Shown: one piece after another, positions 49,927 to 50,632 of the stretch
Position numbering within the stretch: the first letter of the stretch is position 1
Layout: each line of letters starts with the position of its first letter
Assembly (NCBI GenBank): GCA_049970895.1
Contig: JBMFMB010000001.1
Coordinates: 96,001 to 160,000 of the forward strand
Reading direction: 5' to 3'
DNA length: 64,000 nt
Source of the DNA: Candidatus Bathyarchaeia archaeon
GTDB lineage: Archaea > Thermoproteota > Bathyarchaeia > Bathyarchaeales > Bathycorpusculaceae
Program-made: the position numbers and the translations under genes
The notes under the pieces: model-generated
What the model saw: the letters and a program-made list of their open reading frames with translations, nothing else
Databases searched by the model: none
What the model was told of the DNA's origin: nothing

Positions 49927-50632
49927 TTAAAGTTTGTGCCCGTAACGCCCAGTTAAAGGTACAAAAGCCACACCGCCCAGATTCTCCCGGCTAATTTTCC
50001 CATCGGCACTTTTCACAACTTTTATCAGGCTTTGGAATAGGTGTATGCTTCCAACTGGAATTAGCATTATTCCGCCATTTTTTAGCTGTTCAATTAGTGG
50101 TTTTGGTATGTCTGGAGCCGCCGCCGTGACAACTATTCTGTCGTATGGGGCTTTTTCTGGATAACCCATGGAGCCGTCATCGCATATTATTGTGACACGG
50201 TCGCCGTACCCAGCTTTCATTATGTTTCTTCTAGCGAACTCTGCCAATCCCTCAATTATTTCGATGGTGTAGACGTGTCCCCATTCGCTTCTTGGGGCTT
50301 CGCTTGGCGCCACTATTTCAGCCATTGTAGCGGCATGCCATCCTGAGCCTGCTCCCACTTCAAGGACTTTGTGGCCCACTTCCAATTGGAGGGCTTCATT
50401 CATTATTGCAACCATGTTTCGCCTAGCCGAGGCCAAAGCCAAGGCTATGTGGCGCTGAAACTGTCTGCCCAAAACCAATTGGAAGGGGTGTGTCAACGGC
50501 GCTGTAGGATTGCATGTTTTCTGGCAGAAACTTTGTACGTGGCACTTTTCGCATCGCATTAATCACTTTTGGGGAGCGAAGTATGCCCTCCTTTATTAGG
50601 TTCTCAATTAATCGTTCCCAGTCTCTCTCCAA
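49927..50632 (-). CDS. pcm: Protein-L-isoaspartate O-methyltransferase, join(50449..50632, 49927..50417), 224 aa after splicing
   Basis: Exon 1 VPR..F...[15 protein letters not shown]; exon 2 [10 protein letters not shown]...[10 protein letters not shown]...APYDRI.VTAAA...FVPL. Start TTG at 50632 inferred from GGTG SD. Confidence 0.9.
50418..50448 (-). other. Predicted 31-nt bulge-helix-bulge mRNA intron in pcm
   Basis: mRNA CAG-CGCC-AC^A-UAGCC...GGCUA-GGCG-AA^A-CAUG; removal gives GCG CCA CAC AUG. Confidence 0.85.

Follow-up and report, generated by a model that had tools for sequence, protein, structure and literature searches.

How a gene broken by a short insert could still give a complete enzyme is the question raised by pcm in a 64,000-nt stretch of a Candidatus Bathyarchaeia archaeon genome (GenBank assembly GCA_049970895.1, contig JBMFMB010000001.1, positions 96,001 to 160,000; hereafter the window, whose coordinates are used below). 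The gene encodes protein-L-isoaspartate O-methyltransferase and lies on the minus strand, from an ATG at 50668 to a stop at 49929-49927. The list of open reading frames (ORFs) and their translations places 31 nt at 50418-50448 between its two frames. This insert is very likely an archaeal bulge-helix-bulge (BHB) intron inside the pcm coding sequence. The case for an intron is made by the exact restoration of a codon and by comparison with relatives, and not by the shape of the RNA or its folding energy. At the level of sequence, we establish here the geometry of the motif, its conservation with covariation, the restoration of frame and codon in every orthologue examined, coding selection, and the presence of genes for the enzymes.

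The interrupted gene and its predicted product

The frame open from 50668 closes at a UAG within the insert, as the original prediction had stated, and the second frame runs from Met 50415 onward. Against Pfam PCMT (PF01135), exon 1 matches positions 4-59 and exon 2 positions 61-208 of 210, the two jointly spanning 4-208 minus one position. The corresponding ranges are 5-63 and 65-214 for NCBIfam NF010549, and residues 13-77 and 79-228 for PDB 1jg1_A, the solved Pyrococcus-type enzyme. Neither exon alone reaches the 282 bits of the NF010549 equivalog cut-off (64.5 and 200.3 bits). In all three references one residue is absent between the pieces, the His of SAPHM. Excision of 50448-50418 joins C (50449) to AC (50417-50416) and gives GCG CCA CAC AUG, filling the one-residue gap and restoring A-P-H-M by a cut after the second bulge base, as had been proposed. 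Counted from the first ATG, the joined product has 236 aa; the 224 aa originally given is correct if translation starts at TTG 50632, a plausible alternative because the alignment to PDB 2yxe begins at query residue 13.

On the minus strand the RNA reads UUUCAG CGCC ACA UAGCC UU GGC UUUG GCC UC GGCUA GGCG AAA CAUGG, which agrees letter for letter with the insert and structure first described. In the pre-mRNA, CGCC of exon 1 would pair with GGCG of the intron; the resulting 4-bp helix would be flanked by the 3-base bulges ACA and AAA, one on each strand, and the intron would be closed by an inner hairpin. A two-subunit EndA endonuclease would cut past the second base of each bulge, and the ligase RtcB would join the exons, rebuilding the His codon C|AC of SAPHMV and a single open frame for full-length Pcm. 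Translation of an unspliced mRNA would stop at the UAG in the insert. We infer from the sequence that such cleavage and ligation occur in the cell; a search for RNA sequencing runs over 49600-51000 of the window listed none.

In the source genome alone the cut position is ambiguous, as shifting both cuts by one base yields an identical product. The orthologues described below exclude the shifted cut through variants with a UCU bulge (L012, L015 and L108). In these, Pro-His-Met results when the cut follows the second bulge base, and Pro-Leu-Met when it is shifted by one base; Leu is also what the unspliced frame encodes. Other UCU-bulge loci likewise join to SAPHMV. The joined frame reads SAPHMV in all 99 inserts found by homology and in 14 pcm loci found by pattern, and none of the homology-found loci (99 inserts) departed from the description of a His codon split as C...AC.

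A BHB-like shape by itself does not exceed chance. Combined in a loose descriptor, a 4-bp helix, 3-base bulges, an inner helix of at least 4 bp and one outer pair have 16,008 matches on both strands of the 1.34-Mb source genome. What does rise above chance is the exact restoration of frame and codon, together with conservation and covariation in relatives.

Inserts in relatives, selection and history

A Pfam search found pcm in 39 of 40 related genomes. An insert of 28-40 nt interrupts the same codon at 32 of these 39 loci, and the other 7 are uninterrupted. Of 80 loci from a protein-based scan of named Bathyarchaeia records, 67 have an insert and 13 lack one. By homology only, 99 of 119 pcm loci therefore carry a 28-40 nt insert at the identical site; the 39-locus and 80-locus sets overlap in genomes and together hold 80 distinct insert regions. 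To these were added two further families of the class Bathyarchaeia, with inserts of 21, 22 and 57 nt, and three families placed outside the class but within the phylum, one of them the NCBI 'Candidatus Bathyarchaeota archaeon B24'. In the full set of 136 resolved loci, 116 bear an insert, and 96 of these inserts, 21-57 nt long, are distinct. The proportion is biased towards the insert in that 17 of the 136 loci were picked by a pattern presupposing the helix and bulge context and 3 were chosen for looking split. Three of the 17 pattern places (L134-L136) proved to be chance matches outside pcm with no inner helix, and loci in G268 and G093 that looked split are only cut by contig ends.

For the structural tally each sequence was anchored, free of alignment, at its two predicted cut sites. 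All four positions of the central helix pair in 96 of 96 distinct inserts, and the 3-base spacing of the bulges is equally constant, so that the check proposed at the outset, on whether same-site inserts in relatives keep BHB geometry with compensatory changes, came out in favour of an intron. The second pair of the central helix is G-C in 86, A-U in 7 and G-U in 3 inserts, with CACC/GGUG as the compensatory form. The inner helix (h') is 3-12 bp long and covaries: its pairs 1-3 are present in all 96 with 3-5 pair types each, and pairs 4-6 in 89, 87 and 77. Sliding the 3' partner by +1 or -1 loses most pairs. The 5' bulge is ACA in 85 inserts, UCU in 7, ACU in 3 and UCA in 1, with C as the middle base throughout, and the bases directly before AUG are AC in every insert. 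The 3' bulge varies more freely (AAA 70, AGA 14, ACA 6, AUA 5, UUA 1).

A gapless alignment of 31 sequences with 31-nt inserts points the same way. RNAalifold independently predicts the helix, the 3-nt 5' bulge and h' from it. Paired cells amount to 80.8%, against 20-51% for slid partners. Ten pairs have changes on both sides, compared with a shuffled mean of 5.7 and none of 500 shuffles as high; for four of five covariation measures no shuffle of 500 reached the observed value, and for further pair types 4 of 500 did, these statistics being inflated by the non-independence of related sequences.

The variety of these inserts bears on recoding, in which ribosomes would bypass the insert by hopping, or shift frame across it, with the RNA left uncut. 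A hairpin directly after the break, a stop in the insert and, in the source genome, CAU on both sides are what such an event could use. A ribosome landing on the downstream CAU would, however, not be in the frame of MVAIMNE, the UCU, UCA and ACU variants lack the matched codons, and inserts of 21-57 nt in all three phases would require a different hop in each lineage. We consider recoding very improbable.

Both pcm exons are under coding selection. Over the last 60 codons of exon 1 in 98 insert-bearing genes, entropy per column is 0.54 bits at the first codon position, 0.39 at the second and 1.34 at the third, and none of the 98 genes has an internal stop in the 60 codons before the break. The low entropy at the first two positions and the lack of stops indicate that exon 1 is kept coding, and it would reach the frame of exon 2 only after removal of the insert. 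Codon choice beside the break is narrow as well. The Ala-Pro codons of the 98 genes are GCG CCA in 92, GCG CCT in 4 and GCA CCA in 2, the Ala codon being GCG, or GCA with a compensating intron U, in every one; 19 intact genes use ten different Ala-Pro codon pairs, with Ala as GCA, GCG, GCT or GCC.

These observations leave little room for a dead pcm in which the insert is mere damage or mis-assembly. Frameshifts at G runs do affect genes of the source metagenome-assembled genome (C28:3581-3608; C4:25947-25990). Against this stand the recurrence of the insert at a single site in 99 of 119 loci that were assembled independently, the coding selection on both exons and a structure with compensatory changes, and we find a pseudogene or assembly artefact scarcely credible.

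When 115 distinct Pcm proteins (97 of insert-bearing and 18 of intact genes) are placed in a maximum-likelihood tree, intact genes are nested inside insert-bearing groups. The tree requires at least 8 changes of state, 4 of them forced by well-supported branches; the shuffled mean is 17.0, and none of 500 shuffles was as low as observed. It is unrooted, omits many intron-less Pcm genes of other orders and includes rows chosen for the insert. The simplest reading of the tree would be one old gain followed by several precise losses. The intron is probably old; several orders of Bathyarchaeia carry it, and so do related families placed outside the class.

Its wider distribution was sampled with the pattern GCRCCNCN-spacer-GGYGANACATGG, with the reversed pattern as control. 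The pattern is narrow and a few matches arise by chance, so the sample counts are rough lower bounds. In the class sample it occurs in 61 of 301 genomes, against 1 match for the reversed control, and in the phylum sample in 41 of 401 genomes, against 7. Class-sample matches concentrate in the window's own order, in families f1 (21 of 48 genomes), f11 (16 of 16), f10 (2 of 2) and f7 (8 of 12); other families of the same order gave 1 of 1 (f2), 1 of 1 (f12) and 0 of 6 (f6).

Points against an intron and the possibility of a split gene

The selection bias and the inflated shuffle statistics noted above weigh against an intron, as do several properties of the sequence itself. The outer exon-exon helix (h), already described as short and imperfect in the original prediction, is weak: one invariant pair, G50455-C50416, is followed by mismatches. 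Beyond that pair and a mismatch come two U-G pairs; the second pair of h is formed in 6 of 31 sequences only. The minimum-energy fold (-26.1 kcal/mol, z-score -1.73) is not a BHB and pairs GUUUC of exon 1 with GAAAC, and the BHB-constrained fold, at -24.2 kcal/mol, is 1.9 kcal/mol worse. Finally, the 3' helix strand and bulge, GGCGA or GGUGA (50417-50423, minus strand), resemble a ribosome binding site (RBS) 5-6 nt before the exon-2 Met; exon 2 might be translated independently, with a C-terminal fragment made from unspliced mRNA too.

The motif thus fits the relaxed BHB form only; in the strict form, hBHBh', helices h and h' fix both bulges. The weak outer helix and the competing fold indicate a relaxed motif, which would require an enzyme of broad specificity. 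The competing GUUUC/GAAAC fold (50412-50465, minus strand) uses the 3' bulge and its flanks, and the AGA, ACA or AUA bulges of other lineages would weaken it.

The RBS-like element is central to a further possibility, a split gene with translational coupling. An N-terminal part of 81 aa and a C-terminal part of 162 aa would be made separately and then assemble; the hairpin would hide the RBS (GGCGA/GGUGA) before the exon-2 AUG, and ribosomes ending the first part would open it. It accords with this scheme that exon 2 begins exactly at Met, with a Shine-Dalgarno-like GGYGA 5-6 nt upstream, and that every in-frame insert seen has a stop (6 loci with stops inside). Gene callers also start at that Met. 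Among the best 120 database matches, 112 are proteins of 158-168 aa that begin at the exon-2 Met (the Met of SAPHM), many of them named Pcm, rather than the pseudogenes that pipelines had been expected to call. Databases give the exon-2 product as a complete enzyme, a mis-annotation in which the N-terminal third and the conserved SAPH motif are missing.

Other features speak for the BHB intron and against a split gene. Coupling leaves unexplained the constant 4-bp helix and 3-base bulges (96 of 96 inserts), as well as the invariant middle C and the AC before AUG that together make the His codon. With a UCU bulge, the N-terminal fragment would close with SAPL..., leaving both fragments without the conserved His. 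The break falls inside one conserved motif of a single-domain fold, and the cbf5 inserts described below share the architecture with no AUG after the 3' site. Taken together, we judge a split gene improbable.

A further 7 of the best 120 database matches are 225 aa long, with 81-84% identity. They were rejected as spliced forms of the pcm product on account of that identity and of their position, several being on long genomic contigs, and they represent intron-less relatives.

Splicing machinery, known introns and gene neighbourhood

Two EndA paralogues are encoded in the source genome, one of 185 aa (C13:21251-21808, plus strand) and one of 187 aa (C14:7292-7855, minus strand). The first has as closest PDB chains 2cv8_A and 3p1z_B, which we take to be crenarchaeal catalytic EndA subunits, and keeps the His-bearing stretch. 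The second aligns best to 1a79 and has Thr opposite the His of KEHSVYL, presumably the catalytic residue of EndA. Pairs of EndA subunits, one with and one without the catalytic His, form heterotetramers of broad specificity. RtcB is also present (C16:33015-33827), covering positions 1-266 of 426, with the rest lost to a contig end. ARAGORN predicts 14 intron-bearing tRNA genes, some with introns at unusual positions. Hetero-oligomeric EndA is tied to relaxed motifs and to cbf5 splicing in three papers (PMC2738675; PMC5829648; PMC2724299).

The cbf5 gene of the source genome (C23:12056-13051) provides a control. It contains an in-frame 39-nt insert with a TAA, which splits the catalytic Asp codon after its first base and has a CCCU/GGGG helix, AGA and AAA bulges and a strong outer helix. 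The crenarchaeal cbf5 intron, the classic example in archaeal pre-mRNA, is placed at the same site (PMC2738675). Across the source genome and 29 relatives, 26 of 30 cbf5 loci carry inserts of 18-41 nt with the same architecture, including compensatory CUCU/AGAG and CCUU/AAGG, and 4 are intact. The pcm insert is built like the accepted cbf5 intron of the same genome. All sequence-level expectations of a BHB mRNA intron (orthologous inserts, compensatory changes, cut position, EndA, RtcB and the cbf5 intron) are thereby borne out, in support of the original prediction.

A common origin of the two introns was considered from AGCC...GGCU beside GGNG-AA|AC in the source genome, and was dropped when the resemblance failed in other families. 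In one relative, the cbf5 matches (G032:C66:1639-4203) to profile positions 5-174 and 163-322 are separated by about 1.5 kb in one 873-aa frame, which may reflect an intein or other large in-frame insertion.

The original prediction had also suggested that more mRNA introns may be hidden in this lineage, and cbf5 is the only case that bears this out. ORF and codon-usage filters reduced the 16,008 descriptor matches in the source genome to 89; a first ORF filter had left 470 and wrongly dropped pcm, and was then revised. Apart from pcm, the remaining matches connect one gene's end with the beginning of its neighbour, as judged by eye only, with no homology check. No third convincing mRNA intron emerged from this genome scan, which is non-exhaustive, cbf5 itself having been missed through the required first outer pair. 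The two G-run loci named above, a cyclophilin-like gene (C28) and a HAD-like hydrolase gene (C4), were short candidates rejected as frameshifts, either assembly errors or pseudogenes.

In agreement with the original statement that no pcm intron was known, we found none in the searchable literature (subscription journals and supplements were outside the search), and no publication there combines isoaspartate with bulge-helix-bulge. For Bathyarchaeia and BHB motifs it holds only a paper on rRNA circularisation. Schwarz et al. 2020 name cbf5 as the only further BHB intron reported besides their own 5'-UTR case (PMC7714728). That case, the HVO_1309 intron of Haloferax volcanii, is like the predicted pcm intron a target of EndA in an mRNA and not in tRNA or rRNA; it differs in lying in an untranslated leader rather than a reading frame, and in a haloarchaeon rather than a Bathyarchaeon (PMC7714728). 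Later papers, checked by passage, only cite the cbf5 work or treat other RNAs. Within this literature, pcm is very probably the second protein-coding host gene of an EndA-type intron, after cbf5.

An intron in crenarchaeal cbf5 pre-mRNA was reportedly described by Watanabe et al. in 2002. According to Yokobori et al. 2009 (PMC2738675), it resembles the pcm insert in being short (16-44 bp there), in splitting the codon for a conserved functional residue after its first base, and in having a relaxed BHB in which the cuts are predicted to separate the second bulge base from the third. It is likewise linked to hetero-oligomeric EndA, and its patchy spread is read as a gain followed by losses. Splicing is predicted from sequence for pcm, whereas for cbf5 the same paper reports endonuclease cleavage demonstrated for the hetero-oligomer and spliced cDNA that fits the predicted borders (PMC2738675). 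The hosts also differ, a protein-repair methyltransferase in Bathyarchaeia as opposed to a pseudouridine synthase in Crenarchaeota, and the outer helix of pcm is weaker than in the cbf5 introns of the same genomes.

Non-canonical archaeal tRNA introns with relaxed motifs were reportedly described by Marck and Grosjean in 2003, a study cited in PMC2738675. They share with the predicted pcm intron the 4-bp helix, the 3-base bulges and the enzymes. The pcm insert differs from them in having a protein-coding host, with a reading frame rather than a folded RNA as the mature product.

In eukaryotes, HAC1 and XBP1 mRNAs each contain a short, frame-changing intron that is removed without the spliceosome, by the endonuclease IRE1 and under established stress regulation. 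They have in common with the splicing proposed for pcm the change of frame, independence from the spliceosome, religation by RtcB and a host gene of the protein-damage response. The nuclease differs, IRE1 there and EndA here, and stress regulation is purely speculative for pcm. A role of RtcB in XBP1 is mentioned in PMC8718801. It seems unlikely, if conceivable, that the pcm intron is a kept control point; Pcm production would then depend on EndA cutting and RtcB ligation as an archaeal counterpart of stress-regulated HAC1/XBP1 splicing, and with cbf5 such non-spliceosomal mRNA splicing would form a regular layer of expression across Bathyarchaeia.

With the pcm intron conserved in about 100 genomes of an uncultured group that is abundant worldwide, splicing of mRNA by the tRNA machinery looks recurrent, and not a matter of one gene. 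The inserts, at 21-57 nt and with many helix variants, provide a natural series of substrates for studying recognition by a two-subunit endonuclease. The nested intron-less pcm genes offer a test case of precise intron loss in organisms without a spliceosome. The elements described for the window are collected in Table 1.

Table 1. Predicted elements of the interrupted pcm gene (window coordinates)
Element	Position	Strand	Remarks
pcm exon 1	50449..50668	-	73 codons and C of the split His codon; start ATG 50668 or possibly TTG 50632
Predicted intron, 31 nt	50418..50448	-	limits set by cuts that follow base 2 of either 3-nt bulge
pcm exon 2	49927..50417	-	AC of the His codon, 162 codons from Met 50415, stop 49929-49927
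In-frame UAG closing the unspliced exon-1 frame	50423..50425	-	ORF 50423..50668
Central 4-bp helix, 5' strand CGCC	50451..50454	-	in exon 1, Ala-Pro codons GCG CCA
5' bulge ACA	50448..50450	-	cut between 50449 and 50448
Inner helix h', UAGCC 50447-50443 / GGCUA 50428-50424	50424..50447	-	encloses the small hairpin
Small hairpin	GGC 50440-50438, loop 50437-50434, GCC 50433-50431	-	inside h'
Central helix, 3' strand GGCG	50420..50423	-	within the intron
3' bulge AAA	50417..50419	-	cut between 50418 and 50417

On the same strand, glmS (50699-52528) ends 30 nt upstream of the pcm start, and the two genes are probably co-transcribed. On the other side, a TrpB-like gene (48606-49919, plus strand) converges on the pcm stop.

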